NCBI GenBank assembly: GCA_035500015.1
Contig: DATJXQ010000080.1
Location: forward strand, 1-47,160
Length of the DNA: 47,160 nt
Direction: 5' to 3'
Origin: Steroidobacteraceae bacterium
GTDB lineage: Bacteria > Pseudomonadota > Gammaproteobacteria > Steroidobacterales > Steroidobacteraceae
In this document: piece by piece, positions 18,791 to 31,541 of the stretch
Position numbering within the stretch: the first letter of the stretch is position 1
Layout: the number at the start of each line of letters is the position of its first letter
Position numbers and translations under genes: made by a program
Notes under the pieces: model-generated
What the model saw: the letters and a program-made list of their open reading frames with translations, nothing else
The model's database searches: none
What the model was told of the DNA's origin: nothing

Positions 18791-19939
18791 TTATTCGCCG
18801 TCGTCCGGAATCAGGTGCCCGGCGCGCTCGCGCTTGGTGCGGATGTAGCGCGCATTGTGTTCGTTCGGCGCCGCCAGCAGCGATTCGATCTCGGCCACGT
18901 CGATGCCGCGCGCGCGCAACGCGCGAACCTTGTAGGGATTGTTGGTCAGCAGCCGGATGCGCGTGAAGCCCAGTGATTGCAGCATCGCGGCGGCGATGGC
19001 GTAGCTGCGCTCGTCGGCGCTGAAGCCCAGGTGCCGATCGGCATCCACGGTGTCCAGACCCTCGTCCTGCAGTTGGTAGGCGCGCAGCTTGTTGGCCAGC
19101 CCGATGCCGCGGCCCTCCTGCGCGAGATACAGCAGCACGCCGCCGCCCTCAGCGTGCAGGCGTTGCACCGCGGTCTGCAGTTGCTCGCCGCAGTCGCAGC
19201 GCAGGCTGCCGAGCAGGTCGCCGGTGAAGCAGGAGGAATGCGCGCGCACCGGCACGATGGTGGCCGGATCTGGATGGCCGACGATCACCGCCACGTGCTC
19301 GCTGGCATCGCGCCGGTCGCGGAACAGCACCACGCGGCTGGCCTCTTCCGCGCGCAGCGGCACGCGCGCCTCGCTGACGCGCACCAGGTCCTCGCCGCCG
19401 GGATGCGCGTAGCGCTGCACCTGGTCCACGCGCACCGCCAGCACGCCGGCCGGCGCGGCATCGGTGGCTGCGCCGGTGACCAGCAGCGCCGGCAGCAGCT
19501 GCGCGCTCTTGGCCAGCTGCACCGCGGCGGCGGCCAGTGGATCGGCGCAGCTGGCATGCGGCACGCTGCCACCCAGCACCGTGCGCCAGGCATCGGCCTC
19601 CCAGTGGCGGCCGAGATCCAGCAGCTGCGCGGCCGTGAGCTCCGCGGGCAGGTTCAGCAGCAGCAGCTCGTCGGATTCGCAGGGCACGCGCAGCTGCGCC
19701 GCGCGCTCGCCGGTAACCACCAGCGCCGCGCCGGACTGCGCGAGCATGTAGGCAAGCAGCGGCTCCTCGGCCGTTTCCAGCGGTGCGACCAGGCGCCACA
19801 TGCGCCCCGTGGCTTCCTGCACGACGATGCCGCGGCCACGACGCAGCTCGGCCAGCGCGCGGTCGACGGCGATCAGCGCCGGATCACCCTGGGGTGGATC
19901 CGGCGCACGGGGAATGGCTTGCAGGCGGGAACCCGACAT
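18791..19939 (-). CDS. ribA: GTP cyclohydrolase II (long form with about 170-aa N-terminal non-catalytic domain)
   Basis: 382 aa. C-terminal half has VRAHSSCFTGDLLGSLRCDCGEQL, LYLAQEGRGIGLANKLRAYQLQDEGLDTVDA and RIRLLTNNP. The N-terminal half lacks DHBP-synthase catalytic motifs. Confidence 0.9.
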   Translation of the reverse strand: MSGSRLQAIPRAPDPPQGDPALIAVDRALAELRRGRGIVVQEATGRMWRLVAPLETAEEPLLAYMLAQSGAALVVTGERAAQLRVPCESDELLLLNLPAELTAAQLLDLGRHWEADAWRTVLGGSVPHASCADPLAAAAVQLAKSAQLLPALLVTGAATDAAPAGVLAVRVDQVQRYAHPGGEDLVRVSEARVPLRAEEASRVVLFRDRRDASEHVAVIVGHPDPATIVPVRAHSSCFTGDLLGSLRCDCGEQLQTAVQRLHAEGGGVLLYLAQEGRGIGLANKLRAYQLQDEGLDTVDADRHLGFSADERSYAIAAAMLQSLGFTRIRLLTNNPYKVRALRARGIDVAEIESLLAAPNEHNARYIRTKRERAGHLIPDDGE

Positions 19940-19970: not shown

Positions 19971-20828
19971 TTACGAGGCGCGCGGCACGGGCTGGCCCGC
20001 CAGCTGATCGAAGCCCGTGGCGGCGCGGTCGGCGCCGAAGCGGAAGCTCGACACCGCCAGGCTCCCCATGAACTGCTCGCCATAGATGGCCGTGGCCGGA
20101 TCATCCCCGGCCGCGCCGGCCGCCACCATCAGCGGGATCAGGTGATCCTCGCGCGGATGCGCCAGCCGCGCCGCCGGCGCCTGCTGCCAGGCCAGCAGCG
20201 CGGCGCGACGCTGCTCCGGCGTGGTGCCCAGCAATGCGCCGCGCAGCCACGCATCGAATGCCGCAGCCGGCGCTGCGCCGGCCGGACTCCACAAGCGCAG
20301 GTTGTGGTAGCTCTGGCCGCTGCCGATGATGAGCACGCCTTCTTCGCGCAGCGGCGCGAGCGCGCGGCCGGCTTCGAAGTGCTCGGCCGGATAGAGGTTG
20401 CTCTTCAAGGAGAGCTGCACCACCGGCATGTCGGCATCCGGATAGACAGGCTGCATCATGCTGAAGGTACCGTGATCAAAACCTCGCGCCGCGTCTTCGT
20501 GCGCCGGCCAGCCGCCGGCTGCCAGCAGCTCGCGCACCCGCGCCGCCACCTGCGGTGAACCCGGTGCGGCGTAGCGGATGTGGTAGGTCTCGGGCGGAAA
20601 GCCGTAGTAGTCGTACACCATGCCCGGCTGCGGTGCGGAGGAGACCGTAAATTCATCTTCTTCCCAATGGCCGGAGACCACCAGCACCGCACGCGGCACG
20701 GCCGGCAGCTGGCGCGGAATGTCGCGCAGCGCGCGCTCCATCAAGGCGAAGTGCGCGCGCATCGGGCCGTGCATGTACGGCCATGGGCCGCCGCCATGCG
20801 AGAGAAAATACGTCGGCTGCCGGATCAT
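19971..20828 (-). CDS. ygiD: class III extradiol dioxygenase (LigB family; 4,5-DOPA-dioxygenase/YgiD-like)
   Basis: MIRQPTYFLSHGGGPW..., VVSGHWEE, YDYYGFP, GFDHGTF, IIGSGQSYHNL, HPREDHLIPLMVAAGAAG. ATG at 20826-20828 is preferred; the track start at 20837 is a TTG. Confidence 0.85.
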   Translation of the reverse strand: MIRQPTYFLSHGGGPWPYMHGPMRAHFALMERALRDIPRQLPAVPRAVLVVSGHWEEDEFTVSSAPQPGMVYDYYGFPPETYHIRYAAPGSPQVAARVRELLAAGGWPAHEDAARGFDHGTFSMMQPVYPDADMPVVQLSLKSNLYPAEHFEAGRALAPLREEGVLIIGSGQSYHNLRLWSPAGAAPAAAFDAWLRGALLGTTPEQRRAALLAWQQAPAARLAHPREDHLIPLMVAAGAAGDDPATAIYGEQFMGSLAVSSFRFGADRAATGFDQLAGQPVPRAS

Positions 20829-20839
20829 GGTCGGCAATG

Positions 20840-21745
20840 CTAGCGCGGCAGCAGCCAGATGCGGTCATTCCTCATGTCGAAGATCACGTGATGCCTGGCA
20901 AGGATGTTCATCCCCACCAGGTTTCCGCAGCTCTTGTCGCCCAGGCGTTCGCCTGAAGCCAGGCTGACCGCCGGCACATCGCGGAAGATCCATCCCCCAA
21001 TGATGACTTCGTCCAGTGGAAACAAGGCTGGCGAATCATGTCTTGTCCCATCGGCGCGCGTATATGAGTGTCTGACATTTGGATTGCTCGGCAAGGCGAG
21101 CCGAGCAACCAGGTCGGAGTTGAGCGCCAGCCCAAAGCCATAGCCAGTGTCGATGATGGCGCAGCTCTCCGGATCCCGGCCGTTCACCTTGAATTTTACA
21201 GTGGGTCTGGAGTAGCTCAGCTTTACCGGCATGGGAGTATCGGCTGGCGGCTTGAACGTCTCGGGACGAATGAGTGTCAGGCGGCCTGCGCCGAAATCCA
21301 TATCCACGACGGCCTTGGAGAACAATTCTTCACCAAGCACGAGACCCGCGCCTGGCATTCCCCTGGAGACGAGAACGATGGATAGTGTCATGGACGCGGC
21401 GCCCACTTGAACCGATACGTTCTCGGCCAGCGCGGTGGCCTCCTTGTCCTTCGGCGAATCGAATTTGATTCCGGCCGCAGTAGCAGTAGCCTGGCTCATC
21501 GCGGGTGCCGGCGAGCCCGTGTCCAGATAGGCCAATTCATCCTTGCCATGGATCCTCACCGGAATGCCCGCATGCCCGTTGTCATCGAAAACAAGCGGAA
21601 GCTCAATGCGATCCTGCCCCTGCCAATCCAGCTCAGTGGTGGCTCTTATCATCCAGAGAGCCGACAATATGCAGCCCTGTGTGGGAAGAATGCCGATAAG
21701 CATCAGCACCAGTCCACGCGGGCGAAACGGAAGTCGCAATGACAC
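20840..21745 (-). CDS. membrane-anchored aspartic protease with two retropepsin-like lobes
   Basis: 301 aa, GTG start (alternative starts downstream). N-terminal hydrophobic anchor. Two catalytic-type motifs, YLDTGSPAP and AIIDTGYGFGLAL. Lower GC than neighbours (sampled lines about 50-58%). Confidence 0.7.
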   Translation of the reverse strand: MSLRLPFRPRGLVLMLIGILPTQGCILSALWMIRATTELDWQGQDRIELPLVFDDNGHAGIPVRIHGKDELAYLDTGSPAPAMSQATATAAGIKFDSPKDKEATALAENVSVQVGAASMTLSIVLVSRGMPGAGLVLGEELFSKAVVDMDFGAGRLTLIRPETFKPPADTPMPVKLSYSRPTVKFKVNGRDPESCAIIDTGYGFGLALNSDLVARLALPSNPNVRHSYTRADGTRHDSPALFPLDEVIIGGWIFRDVPAVSLASGERLGDKSCGNLVGMNILARHHVIFDMRNDRIWLLPR

Positions 21746-21886
21746 GCAAAGCCCTTATTACGGAGCCGGGAATCAGTTGGAGAGACCATGCTACACCGGC
21801 GTCGTGCGGCGGTTGCCGCTACATGGCAGGGACTTTGCGAGTCAGCCGCTGAACCCGTACTGAACTCGCGGCGCCGCGGATCCCGC

Positions 21887-22771
21887 TCAGCCGCGACCCG
21901 CCGCCACGAAACGCCGCTGCCGCATCCACTTGGTGACCACCCACTTCTCGCCCTCGGTCACCGGCGCGCTGGCATGCAGCGAACGCGGATCGACGCGGCC
22001 CGCCTCGTCACAGTACTCAAAATAAACGGCATTGCCGCGCAGCGGCGAGGTCGCCCAGCCCAGCGCGGGAAACACCGTCTGGCCGCCGTCCGGCACGTCG
22101 TTGAGATAGGTGACCAGCGTGCTGACGCGCTGGCCGCTGCGCGCCATCGACTCGCGGCTGGCCGCGTTGACCGGCTGCAGGTAATCGAAGTGCGGCTCGC
22201 TGCCGCCGCCGGTCGGGTAGTGCAGCACCTGCAGGCCCTCGCCATTCTCCACCGGCAGGCTCATCAGCGCCGACAGGCGGCGGTCGAGGCCGGCGATGAA
22301 GGCATTCTCGGCAGGCCGGAAGAACATGCCGTAACTGGATCGATAGCTGGCGACCACATCCTTGCCGGTGGCCGGATCGAGCACGGTCGAAGGCTGCAAC
22401 CGCGGCCGCGCCAGCTCGATCAGCGTCTCGCATTCTTCCGCATCCAGCACATTGCCCAGCGAGGCGAAGACCGGGTCGTCCGTGCGCGCGTGCACGATCA
22501 CTTCCCGGTCCAGCGCGTGGATGCGCGTTCCCGGTGGCAGCCGCGCCGCCGGTTTCGCCGGTGCTTCATCCGGCAATTCGACGTGGTCGGCGGGTACCGG
22601 CATGCCGCGCCGGCGCGCATCCACGAAGGATTCCATGATGGCCCGCGCGGTGCGCTCATTCATGCCCTGCCCGCGCATCGTGGCGAGCAGCGCCTGCGGC
22701 GCCTGGCCGCTGTCCAGGTTGCTGGTCAGCCAGCGGCCGAGGTCGGGCGAGAAGCGGATCAGCACCGCCAT
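21887..22771 (-). CDS. prolyl 4-hydroxylase-type 2OG-Fe(II) oxygenase (no signal peptide)
   Basis: 294 aa. P4Hc pattern: LQVLHYPTGGGSEPHFDY (HxD), VSTLVTYLND, GGQTVFP, SLHASAPVTEGEKWVVTKWMR (distal His and 2OG-binding Lys). Preceded by an about 70-aa helical N-terminal domain. Confidence 0.85.
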   Translation of the reverse strand: MAVLIRFSPDLGRWLTSNLDSGQAPQALLATMRGQGMNERTARAIMESFVDARRRGMPVPADHVELPDEAPAKPAARLPPGTRIHALDREVIVHARTDDPVFASLGNVLDAEECETLIELARPRLQPSTVLDPATGKDVVASYRSSYGMFFRPAENAFIAGLDRRLSALMSLPVENGEGLQVLHYPTGGGSEPHFDYLQPVNAASRESMARSGQRVSTLVTYLNDVPDGGQTVFPALGWATSPLRGNAVYFEYCDEAGRVDPRSLHASAPVTEGEKWVVTKWMRQRRFVAAGRG

Positions 22772-22773
22772 GG

Positions 22774-23406
22774 CTACACCGGACCATCCACGGCGATCCA
22801 GCCCTTATTGCTCACCGTGAAGCCCTGCCGCAACTGCATCTGGCCCGCGCCATTGACCACGCGCGCCACCATCGGGAACACCCGCTGCGCATCGGCATCG
22901 CGGGTCCACGGCGCCGGATCGATCCGGTAGGTGTAGTTGACCACCGCGACCGGGTGCTGCGGATCGTGCGCGTCGATCTGCCAGTCGACGATGCGCTCGC
23001 GCCGCAGGTGTGCCACGCAGAAATCGTTGGGGTGCGGGGCCTCGTTGCGCGCGGCATGGGCATGCGGAATGTAGAACCTGCGGCCCGCCTCCGTCAGCTC
23101 GTAGCGCTTCAGCGCGCCGTCCGGATTCTCGCTGCTCTTCGCCACCGGCACGAAGGTGCTGCGCACCAGGCCCAGCTTCTCCAGCACCGGCAGCTGCACC
23201 GCATGACGCGAACCGGCGCCGGCTTCGGCCTCCGTGAGATCGATCGGCCAGTCGAACATGCCGAGGCACAGGTCGCCGCGCCGGACGAGGAAATCATCGA
23301 GCGCGGCCTCGAAGTTCGCGCGTGTCGGCGCCTTCACGTCGTGCCCGCTACCACACGCCGCAGCAACGCAGGCCCCCACCGCAACCAGCAACACCTTTGT
23401 ATTCAT
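22774..23406 (-). CDS. uncharacterised lipoprotein, paralog 1 of a tandem pair
   Basis: ATG (complement of 23404-23406). Lipobox VAAAC. Shares a motif skeleton with the next gene: RANFxAALxDFLxxRGxxCL, DWP, PVLEKLGL, YxLTxxGRxxY, DFCVAxL, MQLRxG, GW. Confidence 0.75.
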   Translation of the reverse strand: MNTKVLLVAVGACVAAACGSGHDVKAPTRANFEAALDDFLVRRGDLCLGMFDWPIDLTEAEAGAGSRHAVQLPVLEKLGLVRSTFVPVAKSSENPDGALKRYELTEAGRRFYIPHAHAARNEAPHPNDFCVAHLRRERIVDWQIDAHDPQHPVAVVNYTYRIDPAPWTRDADAQRVFPMVARVVNGAGQMQLRQGFTVSNKGWIAVDGPV

Positions 23407-23416
23407 GTCAGTGCAA

Positions 23417-24061
23417 CTACCTCTCGTCCAGCTCGTCAGCCACCCAGCCATGCTTCGCCAGATGCACGCCCACGCGCAGCTGCATCGTGCCCTCGCCTTC
23501 GAGCGCGCGCGCCAGCGCCGGGAAGGCATGCAGCACCGCGGGAGTTTTCGCCCACGCCACCGGCGTGATGCGGTAAGTGAACAGCAGCGAGGTTGTGTTG
23601 CGGCCGTCGCGCGGTTGCGGCGGATCCCAGCCGACGAGGCGATCCAGCTGCAGCGTCGCCACGCAGAAATCGCCCGGGTGCGTGACCTTCTGCGCCGCCG
23701 TGCGGATCACGACGGGCACGTGCAGGTAGTACTTGCGTCCTTCCGCGGTCAGCGAGTATTCGCGTGCCGCGACCGTCACGGCGATGGCGCCGGCGCCCTT
23801 GCGGACGATTTGGGTGTCGCGCCCGGCGGCAAGGCCGAGCTTCTCGAGCACGGGCATCTGCCGCGCGTCCGGGTCGCGCGCGTCGCCCGCCACGGTGACC
23901 GGCCAGTCATACCTGGCGAGGCATACGTGGCCGCGCTGCGCGAGAAAATCCTGCAGCGCCGCCGTGAAATTCGCGCGGTTCGCCAGCCGCACCTGCCCGC
24001 CTTCGCAGCCGGTGAACGTGCCCGCGAGCAACAGCAGGGCGGCGATGGAGGATCGTCGCAT
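23417..24061 (-). CDS. uncharacterised lipoprotein, paralog 2 of a tandem pair
   Basis: ATG (complement of 24059-24061), 2 nt after the CCP stop (the track start at 24067 is TTG). Lipobox FTGC. Same motif skeleton as 22774..23406. Confidence 0.75.
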   Translation of the reverse strand: MRRSSIAALLLLAGTFTGCEGGQVRLANRANFTAALQDFLAQRGHVCLARYDWPVTVAGDARDPDARQMPVLEKLGLAAGRDTQIVRKGAGAIAVTVAAREYSLTAEGRKYYLHVPVVIRTAAQKVTHPGDFCVATLQLDRLVGWDPPQPRDGRNTTSLLFTYRITPVAWAKTPAVLHAFPALARALEGEGTMQLRVGVHLAKHGWVADELDER

Positions 24062-24063
24062 CG

Positions 24064-25464
24064 TCAATCCACGCAGGTGCCGCCCGCCGGCGGCGTATCG
24101 GGCACCTGGTAGCCATCGCTCAGTGTGTCGAGGAAGCAGATCAGGTCGCCGATCTGCTGCTCGGTCATGGCCGGCATCGAGCCGGCGGCGCGTGGCGCGG
24201 TGCCGCCGCCGAGCGTGTTGTCGCCGCCGTCGCCGGTGCCAAGCGGCACTTCTTCATCCACGCTGCCCTGCTCCCCGGCCGGCAGGTCGTTGAACTTCGC
24301 CACCGTCGCGCCCGGAACGTAGGCCGGCTGCAGCGCCCAGCCCGGATTCTCCAGCGGCGCGCCGGCGCCACCGCTGGCCGGATACCAGTACTCCGGATTG
24401 GTGTCGCGCGTGTTGTAGAAGTGCAGGACCTGGCTCAGCGAATGGAACACGCCATTGTGGAAGAACGCGCCGCGCGTGGCGACATTGCGCAGCACCGGCA
24501 CCTTGAACTGGCCGCAGTATGGATCCGGCGTGCCGAGCTGTGCCGGCGTGTGGTCGGTGCGCTGCGGACCGCACAGGCCCATGTCGTAGTACGCCGGATC
24601 GTCGTTGGCCGGAATGGGATCGGGGTTGCCCGGAATGGAACGGTCGTTGCGCGGCGCGCCGAGGGCCTGGTACGTGAAGTCCGTCATCAGGCCCTGGTTG
24701 CCGGCGAAGTTGACGCCGGTGTAGTGGCAGGCCGAGCAGTTGCCGGTGGCGCTGCTGTGGAACACCAGCTGGCCACGCAGTTCCGCCGCCGTCAGCGTGC
24801 CGCCGATCTTGTTGTAGATGTACAGGTCGTACTTGCTGCTGTAGGGATGGAAGCTGAGGTCCTCGTTCTCGAAGGCCTGGATCGCCAGGCCGATGTCGTC
24901 GAAGGCGGTGTCCGTGTCGTCGAGCGCGCCGGTGCCGAAGGCCTGCAGGAACAGATCGGCGTACTTGCCGTTGCGCACGGCCTGCACCACGTCCGCCTTC
25001 GAGGCATTGTTCATCTCGACCGGATTGAGCAGCGGCAGCGCCACCTGCGCCGCCATGGTCGGCGCGCGACCATCCCACATGAACCCGCCGCCGGGAGAAG
25101 CCAGCGTCACGCCGTCGGGATTGGCGGCGTTGTCGTCGTAGGGCGGAGTCGATTCGCGGTAGCGCAGCGAGGGCACGGCACGCATGCCGGCCTGCGCGGG
25201 ATCGGAACCGAGTTGCACTGCCAGGCTGTTGGGCGGTCCGTAGGCGTATTGCGGATCGTGGCAACTCGAACAGGACATGTTCCTGCCACCCGACAGGTTC
25301 CTGTCGAAGAATGCCTTCTGTCCAACCTGTGCCTTGAGGCTCAGCGTCGGCGCGGTACTGCCGGCGGTGCCGGCGCCCGCGCTGTCAGCGGCCGTACCGC
25401 TGTCGCAGGCCGCCAGTGCCAGCAGCAGCACGGCGAACACGCCCATCGGGAACTGCCTGGCCAT
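24064..25464 (-). CDS. di-haem cytochrome c peroxidase / MauG-family lipoprotein
   Basis: 466 aa. Lipobox LALAAC. Two haem c motifs (CSSCH, CSACH). FKVPVLRNVATRGAFFHNGVFHSLSQVLHFY and C-terminal LICFLDTL are typical of the CCP_MauG family. Confidence 0.9.
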   Translation of the reverse strand: MARQFPMGVFAVLLLALAACDSGTAADSAGAGTAGSTAPTLSLKAQVGQKAFFDRNLSGGRNMSCSSCHDPQYAYGPPNSLAVQLGSDPAQAGMRAVPSLRYRESTPPYDDNAANPDGVTLASPGGGFMWDGRAPTMAAQVALPLLNPVEMNNASKADVVQAVRNGKYADLFLQAFGTGALDDTDTAFDDIGLAIQAFENEDLSFHPYSSKYDLYIYNKIGGTLTAAELRGQLVFHSSATGNCSACHYTGVNFAGNQGLMTDFTYQALGAPRNDRSIPGNPDPIPANDDPAYYDMGLCGPQRTDHTPAQLGTPDPYCGQFKVPVLRNVATRGAFFHNGVFHSLSQVLHFYNTRDTNPEYWYPASGGAGAPLENPGWALQPAYVPGATVAKFNDLPAGEQGSVDEEVPLGTGDGGDNTLGGGTAPRAAGSMPAMTEQQIGDLICFLDTLSDGYQVPDTPPAGGTCVD

Positions 25465-25484
25465 CGCGCAACCCTGAAAGACGC

Positions 25485-25517
25485 GGCGCGCGGGTGGTGA
25501 ACCACCATCCGCGCGCC
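25485..25517 (-). terminator. long GC hairpin downstream of the phosphoesterase gene
   Basis: GGCGCGCGGGTGGT-gaa-CCACCATCCGCGCGCC (one bulge), located between the phosphoesterase stop (25536) and the CCP start (25464). No U-tract. Confidence 0.45.
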
Positions 25518-25535
25518 TGACGCGACGCCTTCCGA

Positions 25536-27986
25536 TTACTTCACCGCCCAGACATTGTCCTGGCTGGCATCGGGGCCGACCTGCGGCGTGATGACACCCT
25601 CCAGCGTGCCCGTCAGCGTGTCCTGCACGCCGACGATGTCACCCGGATACAGCTTCTGGTGGTAGGTGGACGGGATCACGTAGGCGTGGTTGATCGGACG
25701 CACCGAGTCGAAGTGCGTATCCGCGCTGCTCGCGAACTCCGGCAGCGCCAGGATGTTGGCTGCGATGAACGCCTCGGTGTACTTCGCGCGGTTCAGATAC
25801 GAGGCGTCGACGGCCGGGTCGGCGAGCTGGAACATGTCCTGCAGCGTGCGCACCAGCGAGAAGTGGCTGTAGGCATCGCTGTCCTTGATGCCCTTCTTCG
25901 CCGTGCCGAGGTCCTGCTGGTTGGTGATGATGCCGAAGATCGAGTTGCCGTGACCGAAGTTGCCCTGCGCGTAGTTGGTCGGCGCGGTGCCGGCCGTGGC
26001 CACGCCATGCGCATCCACCGTCACCGGTTTGGTGCCGGAGTTCGTGCCGCCGGCATTCCAGCCGCAGCAGGAGCCGTTGCTGCCGCCTTCACCCTCGTCG
26101 AACATCACGACGATGGCAACGCGCTTCTGCTTGTTCTTCCACAGCGCCGAGGCCTTGATCTTGTCGATGACCTTGCTGAGGTAGATGTCGGCGCGGGTGA
26201 CGCCGACGTTCTGGCCGTTGTTGCTGCTGGAACCGCCGAGGGCGCAGGATTCACCATCCGTCCCGGCCGTGCCGACGCCGTGCATGTCGTCGCACTGGTC
26301 GGGCACGACGAAGTTGATGTTGCCCACGTCTCCCATGGCAAGGTCGGTGCCGAACTGGTCATAGATCCACTTCGACGCATCGAAGGAGGGATACGCCGTC
26401 TGCCTCTTCCAGTCCGCTTCCGTGTACTGCATGCCGAAGATGGTGCGGTTGTCCGCATAGAACTCCGGCAGGTTGCGCGCGGTCTGGAAATCGATCGACG
26501 GACCGTGCTTGACGCGGTAGAGCTGCGCTCTCACCGGCCACGCCTGGGTATCGGACAAGGTGATGCCCTCGCTGCTGGTGGCGCTGAACTTGTCGGAAAC
26601 CGCCGGGTCGGCAATGCTGTCGGCGCGCGGATCCTGCCCCGGGTTCATCGACTCGCTGTAGGTGCGGATCGTCATGCCCGCCCTGGAGACCAGCGTGAAC
26701 AGGTTGTCGCCCGGAATATTGTGGACATTGCCGCCCGTCGGCGCATCGCCGCAGGTGGCGCTGGCCGCGCTGTAGCCGGCACGGTGCCCGCTGTCGGCCG
26801 GCGGCAATGCGGCGAACGCGGGTAGCGGCTGGCCGTCCGAGGCCGTGCCGCCCGCGAAGGCGACGTCCTGCAGTGCATAAGGGCCGCTCGGCACGACACC
26901 GCAACCGTACCAGTTGTCGTCGGTGACGCCGAAATCGTCGCCGCCGCCGATCGCACTGTAGTTCGGTTCGGACGGATTGCCGGTCGAATAGTACGTCGTC
27001 AGCGAGCCGTAGGTGTTGAGGATGCCGTTGATGGTGGGCGCACGCAGGTTGCCGACGATCACGTCCGTCGACTTGTTCTCTTCCATGATGATGAAGATGC
27101 TGTCGAAGGCCGGCACGCCCTCGACATTGAACGCCGCCTGCTGCGACTGCGCGAAAGTGATCGGCGCCTGTGTCTCCAGCGGCGTGACGATGGTCGCGGC
27201 GGTGACGCCGGACTTGCCGACCAGGCGCGGATCGCCACCCTTGACGGCGAGATTATCCGGGTAGAGATCGTGGCGATCGAGCTTGGTCGTGGCGTAGGTG
27301 TAGCGATTGGTCAGCGCGTTGTCCGCATACAGCACCGCGTACTGTTCCGAGCCCGTCAGCGTGTTGACGTCCGCCAGCGCATCCGCGCCGCTGACCGTGA
27401 CGGTGCCGAGATTGAAGGCGGGACCGGACAGATACGTGGCGAGATTGGCCTTCTCGGTGGCGTAGTCGGTGCCGTTGGCCTCGACACGGCGCTGCACTTC
27501 GCTCGAGGTCGGGCTGATGACCACACCCGCTGTCTGGTCGGCGAACTGCGCCGCCGAAGCCCGCAGGATCAGGTGGCTGGGGACGGTCGCGGCGGTGGCG
27601 GTGTTGGTGGCCGAAGTGCCGATGTCGGCGACCAGCTGCGCCGGAGAGGCCAGCGTGAAATCGCTCGCCACGGTCAGCGAGAACTTGCCGTTGGCATCGG
27701 TGGTGCCCGAGACCTCGGTGGAATCCAGAATGCCATTGCCGTTGGCGTCGATGAACACGGTGGCGCCGGAGTAGTAGCCCGCCTTCAGCGTCGGATCGCC
27801 CGTGGTACTGCCCGCCACGAAGCCGGAAGCCGCAACCACGCCCGCAAGGGTCTTCGTCGTGGGCGCCGGCGGGCTGTCGTCACTGCTGTTGCAGGCGACC
27901 AGCGTGGAGATGGCCGCGATGCATGCCGCTTCGGCGGTGACTCGCGAGGACTTGCGGAGAATTTCCGCGACGGCTGCTTGGATCAT
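25536..27986 (-). CDS. large lipoprotein with C-terminal phosphoesterase (phospholipase C / acid phosphatase, PF04185-like) domain
   Basis: ATG (complement of 27984-27986) after AAGGAAAC. Lipobox TLVAC. About 300-aa N-terminal region including IDANGNGILD. Catalytic part starts FDSIFIIMEENKSTD... The upstream 220 codons of ORF 25536..28646 overlap the permease gene and are rejected. Confidence 0.8.
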   Translation of the reverse strand: MIQAAVAEILRKSSRVTAEAACIAAISTLVACNSSDDSPPAPTTKTLAGVVAASGFVAGSTTGDPTLKAGYYSGATVFIDANGNGILDSTEVSGTTDANGKFSLTVASDFTLASPAQLVADIGTSATNTATAATVPSHLILRASAAQFADQTAGVVISPTSSEVQRRVEANGTDYATEKANLATYLSGPAFNLGTVTVSGADALADVNTLTGSEQYAVLYADNALTNRYTYATTKLDRHDLYPDNLAVKGGDPRLVGKSGVTAATIVTPLETQAPITFAQSQQAAFNVEGVPAFDSIFIIMEENKSTDVIVGNLRAPTINGILNTYGSLTTYYSTGNPSEPNYSAIGGGDDFGVTDDNWYGCGVVPSGPYALQDVAFAGGTASDGQPLPAFAALPPADSGHRAGYSAASATCGDAPTGGNVHNIPGDNLFTLVSRAGMTIRTYSESMNPGQDPRADSIADPAVSDKFSATSSEGITLSDTQAWPVRAQLYRVKHGPSIDFQTARNLPEFYADNRTIFGMQYTEADWKRQTAYPSFDASKWIYDQFGTDLAMGDVGNINFVVPDQCDDMHGVGTAGTDGESCALGGSSSNNGQNVGVTRADIYLSKVIDKIKASALWKNKQKRVAIVVMFDEGEGGSNGSCCGWNAGGTNSGTKPVTVDAHGVATAGTAPTNYAQGNFGHGNSIFGIITNQQDLGTAKKGIKDSDAYSHFSLVRTLQDMFQLADPAVDASYLNRAKYTEAFIAANILALPEFASSADTHFDSVRPINHAYVIPSTYHQKLYPGDIVGVQDTLTGTLEGVITPQVGPDASQDNVWAVK

Positions 27987-28076
27987 GGTTTCCTTGTATT
28001 CGTCTCTGGTCCGGGTTCGGGACGCGCCCGCACGAAGTGCGGCTGTAGCGCGAGGACGAGAGACTAGAAACCACGC

Positions 28077-28106
28077 ATGACATTCGCGTTTCCTTTTCTT
28101 GACAGT
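28077..28106 (-). promoter_or_regulatory. possible Pho-box-like element upstream of the phosphoesterase gene
   Basis: The minus strand reads CTGTCAAGAAA-AGGAAACGCGA-ATGTCAT. There are two TGTCA half-sites exactly 22 nt (2 x 11) apart with a degenerate middle repeat, about 90-120 nt upstream of the ATG. Confidence 0.3.
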
Positions 28107-28117
28107 TTCGAAAGCCG

Positions 28118-28894
28118 TTACCGCGCTGCCGGCGCCGGAGCACGCAGCGCGGGCAGCAGTTGCACCAACAGCGCGCACGCCGCCAGCGTCCACACGATCA
28201 TCGCGCCGCTGGGCAGGTCGAACACGGCCGACAGCACCAGGCCGGATAGATAGCCGGCGATGCCAACCGAATACGCGGCGACGAGCTGCCGCTTGCCCGC
28301 CAGGCCCGAAGTCGCCAGCGCCGGCACGATGAGGCTGGCAAATACCAGATACACGCCAACGAGTTGCACCGATACCGTGATGGCCAACGCGAACAACGCA
28401 TAGAACAGCACGCCGGCGAGGCGCCCACCGCGCAGCCACATGATGGCCAGCAGCACCAGCGAGATCAGCGCCGCCGGAACCAGTTGCCGGTAACTGACCC
28501 ACAGGATCTGCCCGACCAGCAGATCCTTCAGGTGCTCGCCGCCCTGCGGATTGTTGGCCAGCAGCAGCAGGCCGCCGGTGGCCGCCAGCACGAACAGCGT
28601 GCCGATGAAGGGCTCCTGCATTTTCGGCCAGCGACGGTCGGTCCACGCCAGCAGCGCGGCGCCGGCCAGCGCGGCGACGGCCGCGGCGATCTGCACGCCT
28701 ATGCCATGTTCGGGAACGCCGAGGAACTGCGCGGCAATCACACCCATCGCCGCGATCTGCGCGATGGCCAGATCAATGAAGATGATGCCGCGCGAGAGCA
28801 CCTGCCGCCCCAGCGGCACGTGCGTGGCGAGCACGATCACGCCGGCCACCATGGCGGGGCCGAGGATGCTGATGTCCAGTCCTTCCAGCGTCAT
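28118..28894 (-). CDS. metal ABC transporter permease (ABC-3 / ZnuB-like)
   Basis: 258 aa, polytopic. GIIFIDLAIAQIAAMG and VGVYLVFASLIVPALA patterns fit ABC-3 family permeases. ATGA overlap with the SBP gene. Confidence 0.88.
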   Translation of the reverse strand: MTLEGLDISILGPAMVAGVIVLATHVPLGRQVLSRGIIFIDLAIAQIAAMGVIAAQFLGVPEHGIGVQIAAAVAALAGAALLAWTDRRWPKMQEPFIGTLFVLAATGGLLLLANNPQGGEHLKDLLVGQILWVSYRQLVPAALISLVLLAIMWLRGGRLAGVLFYALFALAITVSVQLVGVYLVFASLIVPALATSGLAGKRQLVAAYSVGIAGYLSGLVLSAVFDLPSGAMIVWTLAACALLVQLLPALRAPAPAAR

Positions 28895-29790
28895 TTCTTC
28901 GCGACTCCCAGCAGCTTGTCGATGGTCGAGTCGAACAGGCCGAACAGGTCCTTCGACTGCGCATCACCACCCACGGTGTACGGCAGCACCACCACCGGCA
29001 CGCCGGTGCGCTCCGACAGCCACTGCGCGGGCTTGGGATCCTGGTACGCCGCGCTGATGATGGCGTACACGCCCTGCTCCTTCGCGGTGCTGATCAGGCT
29101 CGAAAGATGCGCGCTGGTTGGCGGCACGCCGGGTTTGGGCTCCAGCGCGCCGACCTCCTGCATGCCCAGCCACTGCTCCAGGTAGATCCAGCTGACGTGA
29201 TGCACGATGACCTTCCTGCCCTTCAGCGGTGCGGCCCTGGCCTCCCAGCGCTTGATGGCGGCCTGCCAGCGCGTGGTGAAGTCGGCCAGCCGCTGCTGGT
29301 AGGTCGCCGCGTTGGCGGCATCCAGCTCCGCCAGCCGCGCGGCCAATCCATCGGCGATCTTCAGCACGCGGTAAGGGTCGAGCTGGAAGTGCGGGTTGCC
29401 TTCCGGATGCACGTCACCGGCGGCGCGATCCACCTGGCTGGGCTTTTCCAGCGTGGTGATCTGGCTCGCGGCCATGAAATAACCCGGGCCATCGGCCACC
29501 GCATGATTGCCGGATTGCTGGATCAGCTGCGGCAGCCAGCCCACTTCCAGCTCCGCGCCGGTGCACACCAGCAGGTTGGCCTTGCGCACGCGCGCGATCA
29601 GGCTGGGCTTGGCGTCGATCTGGTGCACGTCCTGCATGGCCGTGGTGCCCACGCTGACGTCGACCTTGTCGCCGGCCAGCTCCTGCACCAGCGAGCCCCA
29701 CTCCGGCTCGCAGGCGAACACCTGCAGTTTCGCGCAGGCCGGCAATGCGAACAGGCCCAGCAGCAATGCGGAAAGTATCTTCTTCATCAT
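28891..29790 (-). CDS. metal ABC transporter substrate-binding protein (cluster A-I, ZnuA/TroA-like)
   Basis: ATG ATG at 29785-29790. Signal peptide MMKKILSALLLGLFALPACA. Metal-ligand blocks MQDVHQIDAKPS, DVHPEGNPHFQLDP, VIVHHVSWIYL. No long His-rich loop. Confidence 0.85.
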   Translation of the reverse strand: MMKKILSALLLGLFALPACAKLQVFACEPEWGSLVQELAGDKVDVSVGTTAMQDVHQIDAKPSLIARVRKANLLVCTGAELEVGWLPQLIQQSGNHAVADGPGYFMAASQITTLEKPSQVDRAAGDVHPEGNPHFQLDPYRVLKIADGLAARLAELDAANAATYQQRLADFTTRWQAAIKRWEARAAPLKGRKVIVHHVSWIYLEQWLGMQEVGALEPKPGVPPTSAHLSSLISTAKEQGVYAIISAAYQDPKPAQWLSERTGVPVVVLPYTVGGDAQSKDLFGLFDSTIDKLLGVAKK

Positions 29791-29803
29791 GGTCGTGTCC
29801 TCG

Positions 29804-30967
29804 TCAGAACTTGTGCGCGCCATGCGCGCCGATGGTGGTCTGTATCTGCAGCGACACCGCGTTGTCGGTGGCCGTGGCGCTGGGGTGGTCGCGGCTGAGC
29901 TGCAGGCGCACCAGGCTGAACTCGCTGTTGAGCCAGGTGAGCACCAGGCTGTGGCGGTAGGGATCGAAGCCGCTGGCAAAGGGAGCACCTTGCGGCGCCC
30001 AGATCTGGTCGTAGCGGTAGCCGGTTTCCCACTGGCGGTTGATGCGATACACGGTTTCCGCATACCAGCCGCGGCGCTTGCCGCTCCAGGCCTCCTCCGG
30101 CAGCACTTCATCCGGATCGGCGAAGGTGCCGTTGCGGTCGTCGATGAAGTATTCGCTGCGCACCAGGAAGCCGCCGTCCTTGGTGTTGCCGCCCGGCGCC
30201 CACTTCCAGGTGAGGTCGGCGATGTACAGCTTGTTGATGCCGGAGAAGCCGTCGTCCGCGCCGGCGGTCTTCGAGTGCAGCATCGAAACACCGGCCAGCC
30301 AGGAATTCTCCACGCCCAGGTCGCCGCCCACGTGCGCGAACAGCGTGTCCACGCCCACGCCGGAATGCTGCGCGCCGGCGCTGGGGAAGCTCACACCGCG
30401 AAAGGCTTCGCCGCCCAGTTCGATGAACAGGTCGGTAGGAGGCACCCAGCGCAGTTGCACGCCGTCATCGCCGTACTGGTTGCCGAGGAAGGCCTGGTAG
30501 GGCAGCGGCCGGTCGGAGAACTTGTCCGTGTGCGGATGGTGGCTGTTCAGGTAGCCGATGTTTGAGTAGAAACGTCCGGCACGCAGCGTGAGACCATCCG
30601 GCAGTGCGGTGGTGTCGACGAAGGCTTCCTCGATGCCAAAGTTGTCGTGGCCGTCCTCGTTCTCCACCGTCATGGTGAGCTGCGCGAAGAACTTCTCGTC
30701 CACGTTGGCGGCCAGCGCCAGCTCGCTCTCGCCGATCGACAGGCCCTGCGGCAGCGGCCCGGCCTCGCCGCCCAGCGGGAAACCATCGCGCGAGTAATCG
30801 CTCGGGCTGAGCGAATGATGTGTATAGAAGCCATTGAGGATGACGCTCATGGCGGGGTTGAAGGCATTGGCATTGGCGCCGGTGGCGGGCGCCCCTGAAT
30901 CTTCGGCGGCGAAAGTCCGCGCGCTGGCGGCTGCCAGCAGGCAAACAGCAAGAGAAACTCGTTTCAT
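29804..30967 (-). CDS. outer-membrane beta-barrel (porin-like) protein co-transcribed with the metal ABC genes
   Basis: 387 aa. Signal peptide MKRVSLAVCLLAAASARTFA. Beta-strand periodicity, His-rich patches (LNSHHPHTDKF). C-terminal ...TTIGAHGAHKF ends in Phe. Confidence 0.8.
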   Translation of the reverse strand: MKRVSLAVCLLAAASARTFAAEDSGAPATGANANAFNPAMSVILNGFYTHHSLSPSDYSRDGFPLGGEAGPLPQGLSIGESELALAANVDEKFFAQLTMTVENEDGHDNFGIEEAFVDTTALPDGLTLRAGRFYSNIGYLNSHHPHTDKFSDRPLPYQAFLGNQYGDDGVQLRWVPPTDLFIELGGEAFRGVSFPSAGAQHSGVGVDTLFAHVGGDLGVENSWLAGVSMLHSKTAGADDGFSGINKLYIADLTWKWAPGGNTKDGGFLVRSEYFIDDRNGTFADPDEVLPEEAWSGKRRGWYAETVYRINRQWETGYRYDQIWAPQGAPFASGFDPYRHSLVLTWLNSEFSLVRLQLSRDHPSATATDNAVSLQIQTTIGAHGAHKF

Positions 30968-31079
30968 GATTGTTCCCGGTCGGATCGCGTGGGGCGCGTA
31001 GGCGCCGGCCGGAGCAGGCTCCGGCGCGGTCCATCAGCGGCCATTGAGACGGGCGACCACGGCGGGTCGCCCGGAAGCA

Positions 31080-31448
31080 TCACGCGATCGGCGGGCGGAG
31101 GAGCCTCGCGATGCGTTGCACAGGAGCCGGCAACCGGATCGACGGGGGATTCAGCACGGAATCGAACTGCACCGCCGGAACCGCCACGACCGCGGCGGTA
31201 TCGGCATAAACGCCGCCATCGTCGCTGTGCAGCAGGCCGTGGGCGCCGCGGGCGTGTTCCGCGTCCAGCTGGCGTTCCAGCGGGGAATCCGGCCGGAACT
31301 TCTCATGCGCCAGCGCGGCCAGCTCGTGGCCCAGCTGGTGGGTTTCGCACCAGGTGGAATAGGCCGGCCTGACGAGCACCGAAAGCAGCAGCACGCCCAC
31401 GAGCACGATTCGCGGCAGCAGCGGCAGGTGCCTGGCAGGACGGATCAC
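31080..31448 (-). CDS. small His-rich protein with N-terminal hydrophobic anchor, copy A
   Basis: 122 aa, GTG start. Core YSTWCETHQLGHELAALAHEKFRPDSPLERQLDAEHARGAHGLLHSDDGGVYA is identical to copy B. Most nucleotide differences between the copies are synonymous in this frame. Confidence 0.7.
   Translation of the reverse strand: MIRPARHLPLLPRIVLVGVLLLSVLVRPAYSTWCETHQLGHELAALAHEKFRPDSPLERQLDAEHARGAHGLLHSDDGGVYADTAAVVAVPAVQFDSVLNPPSIRLPAPVQRIARLLRPPIA
31181..31361. repeat. direct repeat, copy A (core of the duplicated small gene)
   Basis: Aligns without gaps to 33913-34093. By hand count there are 11 mismatches in 181 nt, including a 71-nt perfect run (tgttccgcgtccagctggcgttccagcggggaatccggccggaacttctcatgcgccagcgcggccagctc). 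Confidence 0.9.
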
Positions 31449-31477
31449 TGCCGTACTTTACGATCCGCGCGCCGCCG

Positions 31478-31541
31478 GCGCCAGCCACCGGGCAGGTGGC
31501 TGGCGCGGCATGCATGGCCCGCGGCCCCGGCGCCGCGGGCC
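31478..31541 (-). terminator. two GC hairpins downstream of the TonB-dependent receptor gene
   Basis: GCGCCAGCCACC-gggca-GGTGGCTGGCGC (31478-31506) and GGCCCGCGGC-N6-GCCGCGGGCC (31516-31541), just after the receptor stop at 31549. No U-tract. Confidence 0.4.

Follow-up and report, generated by a model that had tools for sequence, protein, structure and literature searches.

A conserved five-gene cell-envelope module with a BthA-like di-haem enzyme, an orphan lipoprotein, a phosphoesterase and a prolyl 4-hydroxylase

Why would a bacterium pack a di-haem c-type enzyme, two lipoproteins of no recognized family and a prolyl 4-hydroxylase (P4H) onto one strand with almost no space between them? 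The question is raised by positions 21,887 to 25,464 of a 47,160-nucleotide (nt) stretch of DNA from a Steroidobacteraceae bacterium (contig DATJXQ010000080.1), the whole of which is called the window here. An earlier reading of this segment, made from the sequence only, described a tight operon of four minus-strand genes. The four open reading frames and their coordinates are borne out by the sequence, as are the gaps of 2, 10 and 2 nt that separate G1 from G2, G2 from G3 and G3 from G4, which were taken straight from it. G1 is the di-haem gene, G2 and G3 encode the lipoproteins LIP2 and LIP3, and G4 encodes the P4H. To these has to be added PHOS, a phosphoesterase gene that lies upstream of G1 on the same strand, across a spacer of 71 nt. 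The segment covers the last four genes of a conserved five-gene module of the cell envelope; in it PHOS, G1, LIP2 and LIP3 all carry lipoboxes, the mark of membrane-anchored proteins. The four genes of the proposed operon are real, but the unit has five genes rather than four.

The extent of the module was determined from 80 loci found with the lipoprotein in a profile scan, one genome per species, against which the window proteins were then run by tblastn. The loci cover beta-, gamma- and alphaproteobacteria and come from Variovorax, Nevskia, Solimonas, Paraburkholderia, Caballeronia, Bordetella, Cupriavidus, Janthinobacterium, Undibacterium, Steroidobacteraceae, Rhodopila and Acetobacteraceae, among others. 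Given the lipoprotein, a BthA-like gene lies immediately upstream of it in 77 of the 77 loci with room for one, and a PHOS orthologue lies upstream of the di-haem gene in 71 of 72. A P4H is present somewhere in the locus in 71 of 74; it is adjacent in 68 loci, and in 20 of these 68 it is convergent. The convergent arrangement belongs to the Paraburkholderia group, and in both Paraburkholderia and Caballeronia adjacency is kept. The conserved order is phosphoesterase, di-haem enzyme, lipoprotein (one or two copies) and P4H. The sequence-only reading had proposed a gene-neighbourhood check, and the adjacency proved to be conserved. Its "twin lipoproteins" turned out to be lineage-specific, as 33 of the 80 loci have two copies and 47 have one. 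The nearest relatives of the window proteins are not of the Xanthomonas type. They are found in Solimonas, Nevskia and Variovorax at 66-81% identity, and Solimonas terrae is the closest (81% for G1, 74% for PHOS), similarities that by themselves would point to a gammaproteobacterium of the Nevskiales type as the probable source. On plasmid byi_1p of Burkholderia sp. YI23 the components are named in GenBank as "phosphoesterase", "putative cytochrome c peroxidase", "hypothetical protein" and "procollagen-proline 2-oxoglutarate-4-dioxygenase". The smallest version is found in Cupriavidus ulmosensis (locus L035), which retains just the di-haem gene and the lipoprotein.

The aspartyl-protease and LigB genes that follow the P4H in the window were found in none of the other loci, and the conserved unit is therefore exactly PHOS, the di-haem enzyme, the lipoprotein or lipoproteins and the P4H. 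Could unrelated genes simply have come to lie side by side, functionally unconnected? About 70 genomes from three proteobacterial classes share this gene set in this order, with unrelated flanks, and a gene fusion of the di-haem enzyme with the lipoprotein, described below, also speaks against it. Chance adjacency is effectively refuted by the conservation data. The component superfamilies and the pairing of a di-haem enzyme with a phosphatase are already known and published. No paper was found on the conserved five-gene arrangement, on the orphan lipoprotein family and its fusion, on the obligatory P4H or on the spread far beyond Burkholderia, and only the paper on BthA (PMC6405878) is relevant. 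The suggestion that this gene combination is undescribed agrees with the literature found.

What kind of di-haem enzyme is G1? The gene (24,064-25,464, minus strand) encodes a lipoprotein of 466 residues with the lipobox LAAC (Cys20) and two haem c motifs, CSSCH at residues 65-69 and CSACH at 243-247. It matches Pfam CCP_MauG (PF03150) with an E value of 1.2e-31, in agreement with the family proposed from the sequence. The best match in the PDB is BthA (6nx0, 3.8e-56), aligned over residues 39-362 and a C-terminal helix, and MauG matches at 6.8e-37. Canonical bacterial cytochrome c peroxidase (bCCP) structures match at residues 45-256 only, with E values of 1e-14 or weaker. Y350, in the motif FYNTR, aligns with Tyr294 of MauG and with Tyr463 of BthA, the residue mutated in the Y463M structure, and is predicted to be the sixth ligand of the second haem. 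This tyrosine, both CXXCH motifs, Q140, P144 and E150 are invariant in 78 of 78 orthologues, and an alignment to the MauG structure 3l4m makes Q140, P144 and E150 the equivalents of MauG Q103, P107 and E113. The distal-ligand check that had been proposed is answered by a tyrosine of the MauG/BthA type in every orthologue, and an ordinary CcpA is ruled out. The position of MauG W93, between the haems, is variable. It is W130 in G1 and a tryptophan in 52 of the 78 orthologues, is Leu, Ala, Gln or Asp in the other 26, and is Ser in BthA, so that an inter-haem tryptophan appears to be dispensable in the BthA clade. The position of MauG W199 is occupied by Gly in G1.

The scores of G1 against the NCBIfam models for MauG (TIGR03791, 72 bits against a cut-off of 443.85) and MbnH (TIGR04039, 106 bits against 362.85) are far under the cut-offs. 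Because of these scores, the tyrosine ligand and BthA as the best match, G1 is assigned by sequence to the BthA clade, in a subclade of its own, and is thereby set apart from ordinary CcpA, from MauG and from MbnH. In Burkholderia thailandensis, BthA and BthB belong to cluster IIIb of the sequence similarity network of the bCCP/MauG superfamily (PMC6405878), and BthA is the best solved relative of G1. The two enzymes share the tyrosine ligand (Y463 and Y350), the lack of a strict inter-haem tryptophan and an adjoining phosphatase gene. About 40% of the aligned positions match by eye (this value was not computed), and for a BthA-like paralogue the identity is 42%. As a third subclade, the window type is distinguished by Gly-rich inserts and a pair of C-terminal Cys residues that are particular to it, and whereas the BthA cluster is given as restricted to Burkholderia (PMC6405878), the window type occurs in many genera. 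The BthA paper does not mention a lipoprotein or a P4H partner (PMC6405878).

Canonical CcpA and other bCCPs share with G1 the two CXXCH sites and the CCP_MauG fold but differ in the His/Met ligation of their electron-transfer haem. MauG, the enzyme of tryptophan tryptophylquinone biogenesis, shares a six-coordinate His/Tyr haem, the Q103, P107 and E113 equivalents and, in the window protein, the W93 equivalent, as well as the idea that a partner encoded in the neighbourhood is oxidized at long range. However, the window has no mauA or mauB, no methylamine dehydrogenase subunit is found among the eight annotated genes around the operon, the W199 equivalent is missing, and the lipoprotein partner has an unrelated fold. 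MbnH and MbnP, of the kynurenine-dependent copper site, are the closest analogy for a two-gene pair of enzyme and partner, in which a small periplasmic partner is modified at a tryptophan. In this case the differences are that the lipoprotein is not of the MbnP family, that there is no TonB transporter gene, and that PHOS and the P4H have no counterpart. The sequence-only reading had used MauG and MbnH as its precedent. The enzyme is indeed MauG/BthA-like, but BthA is reported to lie always downstream of a phosphatase gene (PMC6405878), a precedent that speaks for the phosphatase no less than for the lipoproteins.

An argument for a physical partnership between G1 and the lipoprotein comes from a fused protein of 566 residues (P0343), in which a full BthA-like enzyme runs in frame into a lipoprotein domain that has lost its own lipobox and signal peptide. 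The fusion, encoded for instance on contig QFOD01000003.1 of assembly GCA_003241055.1, is found in three independent assemblies, with PHOS before it and a short 2-oxoglutarate (2OG) oxygenase after it. In a second lineage the last ~108 residues of the enzyme are joined to the lipoprotein domain (P0302), and the locus is otherwise decayed. Two further candidates were set aside: P0293 (427 residues) is a frameshift or read-through artefact, in which the haem motif is garbled but an internal lipobox is intact, and the chimera P0282 is uncertain. Neither the fused enzyme nor the paralogues that have no lipoprotein possess the Gly-rich inserts and C-terminal Cys pair seen in the window-type enzyme. 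The confinement of these features to the unfused window type would fit a docking surface. The adjacency in 77 of 77 loci, the fusions, the inserts missing from the fused form and the minimal pair in C. ulmosensis together argue for a physical association of the lipoprotein with the di-haem enzyme. It had been claimed that the lipoproteins could be substrates or partners; the adjacency and the fusion speak for a partner, but the conservation of Trp and Cys residues in plasmid homologues that stand alone speaks against a substrate.

LIP2 (23,417-24,061, minus strand, 214 residues) starts with ATG, with an alternative TTG at 24,067, and LIP3 (22,774-23,406, minus strand) has 210 residues. They are paralogues, as had been proposed, with 37% identity over 197 columns (E 6e-40). 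Two invariant Cys and several invariant Trp had also been noted, and C47, C130, W53, W167 and W203 (G3 numbering), besides the lipobox Cys, are invariant in 18 members of the family; H125, D128 and Y160 are likewise invariant in cluster-type members. Searches of Pfam and NCBIfam with both proteins were empty even at E values up to 10. The 336 homologues of LIP2 are all unnamed or "hypothetical", and in a profile search 1061 representatives at 50% identity reach E<=1e-3, while 108 reach E<=1e-30. LIP2, the core type, always directly follows the di-haem gene and clusters with all the single-copy lipoproteins of other genomes. LIP3 forms a separate similarity cluster that comes almost wholly from two-lipoprotein loci of the Variovorax, Nevskia and Solimonas type, and it is a derived paralogue; one single-copy locus carries the LIP3 type only. 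An AlphaFold2 model of LIP3 (predicted local distance difference test score, pLDDT, 84.8; predicted template modelling score, pTM, 0.74) has a helical, winged-helix-like lobe followed by an antiparallel sheet lobe. Foldseek with this model against the PDB gave nothing at E<0.001, and the best match was NTF2-like over 77 columns (E 0.08, template modelling score (TM) 0.20). The view that the lipoproteins cannot be assigned to a characterized family is upheld by the absence of a Pfam, NCBIfam or PDB structural match. One orthologue is named "PadR family transcriptional regulator" by NCBI. There is no Pfam match at E<=10, all members have a lipoprotein signal, and PadR appears in Foldseek only at rank 39 (E 0.74). 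Since the protein is a lipoprotein and matches no model, this name was rejected.

Distant homologues of the lipoproteins are present in 349 plasmid records, with 26-29% identity over ~90% of the length, mostly on conjugative plasmids of Klebsiella and E. coli; others are from Xanthomonas, Xylella and Comamonas. On the Klebsiella IncX4 plasmid p535-5 the homologue directly follows hns (positions 569-1225 of locus L081), and on plasmid pF of Xanthomonas citri it lies just before traC (6001-6666 of L082); both are annotated as hypothetical. No di-haem gene is near the homologue at these two inspected plasmid loci. Intermediate members of the family stand alone in contexts that resemble mobile elements, and a member at E 4.5e-53 retains the whole cluster. 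The plasmid homologues retain the lipobox Cys, C130, D128, W167 and W203. Because these residues are kept without a di-haem neighbour, the conserved Trp and Cys look structural and not like sites of modification.

The gene on the other side of G1 is PHOS (25,536-27,986, minus strand), a lipoprotein phosphoesterase of 816 residues with the lipobox LVAC at residue 29. At 41.5 bits (E 1.2e-10) it clears the threshold of 23 for Pfam PF04185, the AcpA/phospholipase C family, and it has a 290-residue N-terminal Ig-like/helical extension. A sequence search of the PDB found no relative at E<=1. The motifs ENKS, PSEPNY, CDDMH, FDEG and CCGWN are invariant. In an alignment with canonical AcpA, PHOS matches at the ENxS, DE and C-terminal motifs, and the core motifs EN-x-S, F/Y-DE and D-x-H type of the AcpA/phospholipase C family are kept. 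In contrast, the nucleophile region fails to align, GGFWDH is replaced by CCGWN, the extension is additional, no PDB sequence relative is found, and PHOS is very divergent, matching the family at 1e-10 against 1e-100 for canonical AcpA. An identification of the invariant PSEPNY with the nucleophile motif of AcpA was rejected, as canonical AcpA sequences lack it. The vicinal Cys-Cys-Gly-Trp motif (SCCGWN) at PHOS residues 637-641 (26,064-26,078, minus strand) takes the place of GGFWDH just after the FDE metal-ligand motif. It is kept in two individually aligned orthologues (L084 and L090) and is at least 95% conserved in an alignment of 70 sequences. The CCGW motif is a speculative candidate for an oxidation site.

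A link between BthA-type enzymes and phosphatases has been reported. BthA is always downstream of a phosphatase gene, bthA and phosA of B. thailandensis are induced 5- and 14-fold under anaerobic conditions, and it has been proposed as a possibility that BthA oxidizes its phosphatase partner (PMC6405878). PhosA is annotated as a Ser/Thr-phosphatase or a purple-acid-type metallophosphoesterase, and its fold differs from PF04185. BthA-like paralogues that are ~39-42% identical to G1 lie divergent beside canonical AcpA genes (PF04185, E 1e-85 to 1e-100), and in the pairs from B. thailandensis 34, Rhizobium and Ralstonia no lipoprotein or P4H is nearby. From BthA with PhosA and the BthA-like enzymes with AcpA it follows that di-haem enzymes of this type are generally paired with phosphatases, and that the phosphatases have two folds unrelated to each other. 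In the window type this general pairing is extended by the lipoprotein and the P4H. In the Nevskia loci L021 (3409-4737), L023 (888-2210) and L024 (3726-4802), a second, distant BthA-like gene (35-42% identity) is immediately upstream of PHOS, and PHOS sits between two di-haem genes. In the genome with the fusion, a gene for a PhoX-family alkaline phosphatase is found ~2 kb upstream of the module (1579-3540 of L084), which is a weak hint of a phosphorus-scavenging context.

What is a P4H doing in this company? G4 (21,887-22,771, minus strand, 294 residues) had been described as a P4H-type enzyme with an extra N-terminal domain and no signal peptide, and this description is confirmed. Residues 81-288 match the P4H of B. 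anthracis (5iax, 6.9e-42; 3itq), Chlamydomonas and human collagen-type P4H match too, and Pfam 2OG-FeII_Oxy_3 (PF13640) matches at 1.9e-12. The alignment with 5iax predicts H194, D196 and H266 as iron ligands and K276 as the 2OG-binding residue. The likeness to the B. anthracis enzyme runs through the catalytic domain from end to end (~1e-41) and includes the H-x-D...H triad and the 2OG-binding Lys. The differences are the N-terminal domain of ~80 residues and the genomic context of exported proteins. The N-terminal domain (residues 1-80) is conserved among orthologues and by itself gave no significant match in the PDB or Pfam. By its sequence G4 is expected to be cytoplasmic. Invariant X-Pro-Gly motifs are found in two of the other components, SPGGG in G1, next to the inter-haem position, and MNPGQD in PHOS, and these are candidates for the action of the P4H.

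How could the parts work together? We tentatively favour, at a little short of even chances, a role for the lipoprotein as a docking or relay subunit, with the high-valent, H2O2-driven di-haem enzyme acting on a protein of a complex tied to PHOS. The lipoprotein would be a stable partner subunit that serves as a docking, adaptor or redox-relay domain. By analogy with BthA and MauG, H2O2 would bring the di-haem enzyme to a high-valent bis-Fe(IV) state, and a directed oxidation would follow inside a complex to which PHOS belongs, the target being either PHOS itself or the lipoprotein. The most plausible role of the P4H would be to hydroxylate a proline of an unfolded precursor in the cytoplasm before its export, which is the simplest idea because all the other components are Sec-exported as unfolded chains. 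Several observations weigh against this proposal. The P4H is placed in the cytoplasm and every other component is exported, which makes a mechanistic link awkward. Two unrelated folds, a metallophosphoesterase for BthA and PF04185 in the window, pair with BthA-clade enzymes; a single site-specific modification is therefore hard to fit, and a shared substrate or condition is favoured. The distant relatives of the lipoprotein are solitary on plasmids and mobile elements. The loci were retrieved via the lipoprotein, and hence the locus counts give the probability of the partners given the lipoprotein and not the reverse. Finally, the AlphaFold2 model of the fusion P0343 (pLDDT 62, pTM 0.42, with the di-haem half at pLDDT <50) is unusable for the interface.

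The closest competing explanation is that the lipoproteins are themselves the substrates of the di-haem enzyme, in the manner of preMADH (the methylamine dehydrogenase precursor) with MauG or of MbnP with MbnH, an aromatic residue being oxidized to form a cofactor or metal site and PHOS and the P4H being accessory. MbnH, a MauG-like di-haem enzyme, modifies a Trp of the adjacently encoded MbnP, and G1 has a ligand set of the MauG type. The invariant adjacency and the minimal pair in L035 also suit this model, W53, W167, W203, H125, D128 and Y160 are invariant in cluster-type members, and in-cis formation of a cofactor is conceivable for P0343. However, W167, W203, the Cys residues and D128 are kept in the stand-alone plasmid homologues and so look structural, the lipoprotein matches neither MbnP nor any other NCBIfam model, the MauG surface tryptophan W199 is missing, and the inter-haem tryptophan is dispensable in 26 of 78 orthologues. 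A permanent fusion of an enzyme with a single-turnover substrate would be unusual, and BthA-clade enzymes pair with phosphatases where there are no lipoproteins. Taken together, substrates of this kind seem unlikely. A two-compartment maturation pathway, in which the P4H would hydroxylate the precursor and the lipoprotein-docked bis-Fe(IV) enzyme would then install a cofactor or cross-link in the lipoprotein or in the CCGW of PHOS, is decidedly improbable. If it were true, it would yield a redox-dependent phosphoesterase of an undescribed kind and would reveal the function of BthA-type enzymes.

The remaining explanations do without a directed modification. It could be that PHOS frees a small molecule in the periplasm, perhaps by cleaving an organophosphate to give a phenolic or lipid-derived alcohol, that the di-haem enzyme oxidizes the product or removes harmful H2O2, and that the lipoprotein, with its half-barrel lobe, is a ligand carrier. 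The two phosphatase folds that pair with BthA-clade enzymes (PMC6405878 and the BthA-like/AcpA pairs) suit a shared substrate or condition better, and BthA is reported to turn over H2O2 catalytically (PMC6405878). The PhoX phosphatase close to the fused gene and the weak resemblance of the C-terminal lobe of the lipoprotein to NTF2-like, ligand-binding folds point the same way, but the latter is not significant (E 0.08, TM 0.20). The conserved set includes no transporter or catabolic gene, the P4H is left unexplained, and no canonical Pho box was found upstream of the window PHOS, which makes this coupling quite unlikely. A module that responds to O2 and H2O2 was an alternative already raised from the sequence, with the P4H as a cytoplasmic O2 sensor and the di-haem enzyme as a periplasmic sensor or scavenger of peroxide that jointly tune the expression or activity of PHOS. 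Prolyl hydroxylases that depend on 2OG do serve as O2 sensors in other systems, and the anaerobic induction of bthA (5-fold) and phosA (14-fold) in B. thailandensis (PMC6405878) is in keeping with such a role. Nevertheless, no regulator or signalling domain belongs to the conserved set, the P4H is nearer to collagen-type P4Hs than to sensors of the PHD/EGLN type, and neither the obligate lipoprotein nor the fusion is explained. A sensory module is very improbable.

Di-haem enzymes of the BthA type form an unusually stable bis-Fe(IV) oxidant, and since 2019 the neighbouring phosphatase has been the sole clue to their biological substrate. The module is a widespread and strictly conserved form of the di-haem/phosphatase association, with two undescribed components added, the orphan lipoprotein and the predicted cytoplasmic P4H, and it provides a testable experimental route to the role of BthA-type enzymes. 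Variovorax paradoxus, Paraburkholderia xenovorans LB400 and Bordetella are tractable carriers of the cluster. The lipoprotein family is sizeable and uncharacterized in its own right, and one of its branches is mobile, being carried by conjugative plasmids of Klebsiella and E. coli, IncX4 among them.

The spacer between PHOS and G1 contains a GC-rich hairpin (25,485-25,517, minus strand). A stretch of 91 nt folds at -45.8 kcal/mol (z -2.74), and 0 of 200 shuffled sequences fold as well. It has no clear T-run and the terminator scan made no call. The hairpin may be a partial terminator or an element that stabilizes the mRNA, and it may set different levels of expression for PHOS and the downstream genes. 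A scan for sigma-70 promoters and terminators gave nothing that exceeded the shuffled expectation, and an Rfam scan of 20,500-31,500 had zero matches. Upstream of PHOS in the window the search for a Pho box found only CTGTCA and TGTCAT, 22 nt apart. Pho-box scores across the loci are raised mainly by a Variovorax-specific palindrome, TGACA-N6-TGTCA (for example TTGACACAAAGATGTCAC), which lies ~100-230 nt upstream of PHOS in the Variovorax-type loci L004-L011, L014, L017, L020, L026, L028 and L080. This palindrome may be the binding site of a regulator; it is absent from the window.

The genes around the module in the window are of other kinds. Downstream of the P4H by 141 nt is a gene (20,840-21,745, minus strand) for a lipoprotein of 301 residues that has in tandem two aspartyl-protease domains of the retropepsin type (Pfam Asp_protease_2; TIGR02281, clan AA). 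The start codon of a LigB-family extradiol dioxygenase (19,971-20,837, minus strand; Pfam LigB, 1.3e-26) comes immediately after its stop codon, and a GTP cyclohydrolase II gene is found at 18,791-19,939. Directly upstream of PHOS, the regions 28,118-29,790 and 29,804-30,967 (both minus strand) hold ZnuB-like (ABC-3) and ZnuA-like genes and a protein of 387 residues with a signal peptide and no Pfam match. With the Znu genes and GTP cyclohydrolase II, the surroundings of the module in the window look like a zinc-homeostasis neighbourhood, a setting that is not conserved at the other loci.

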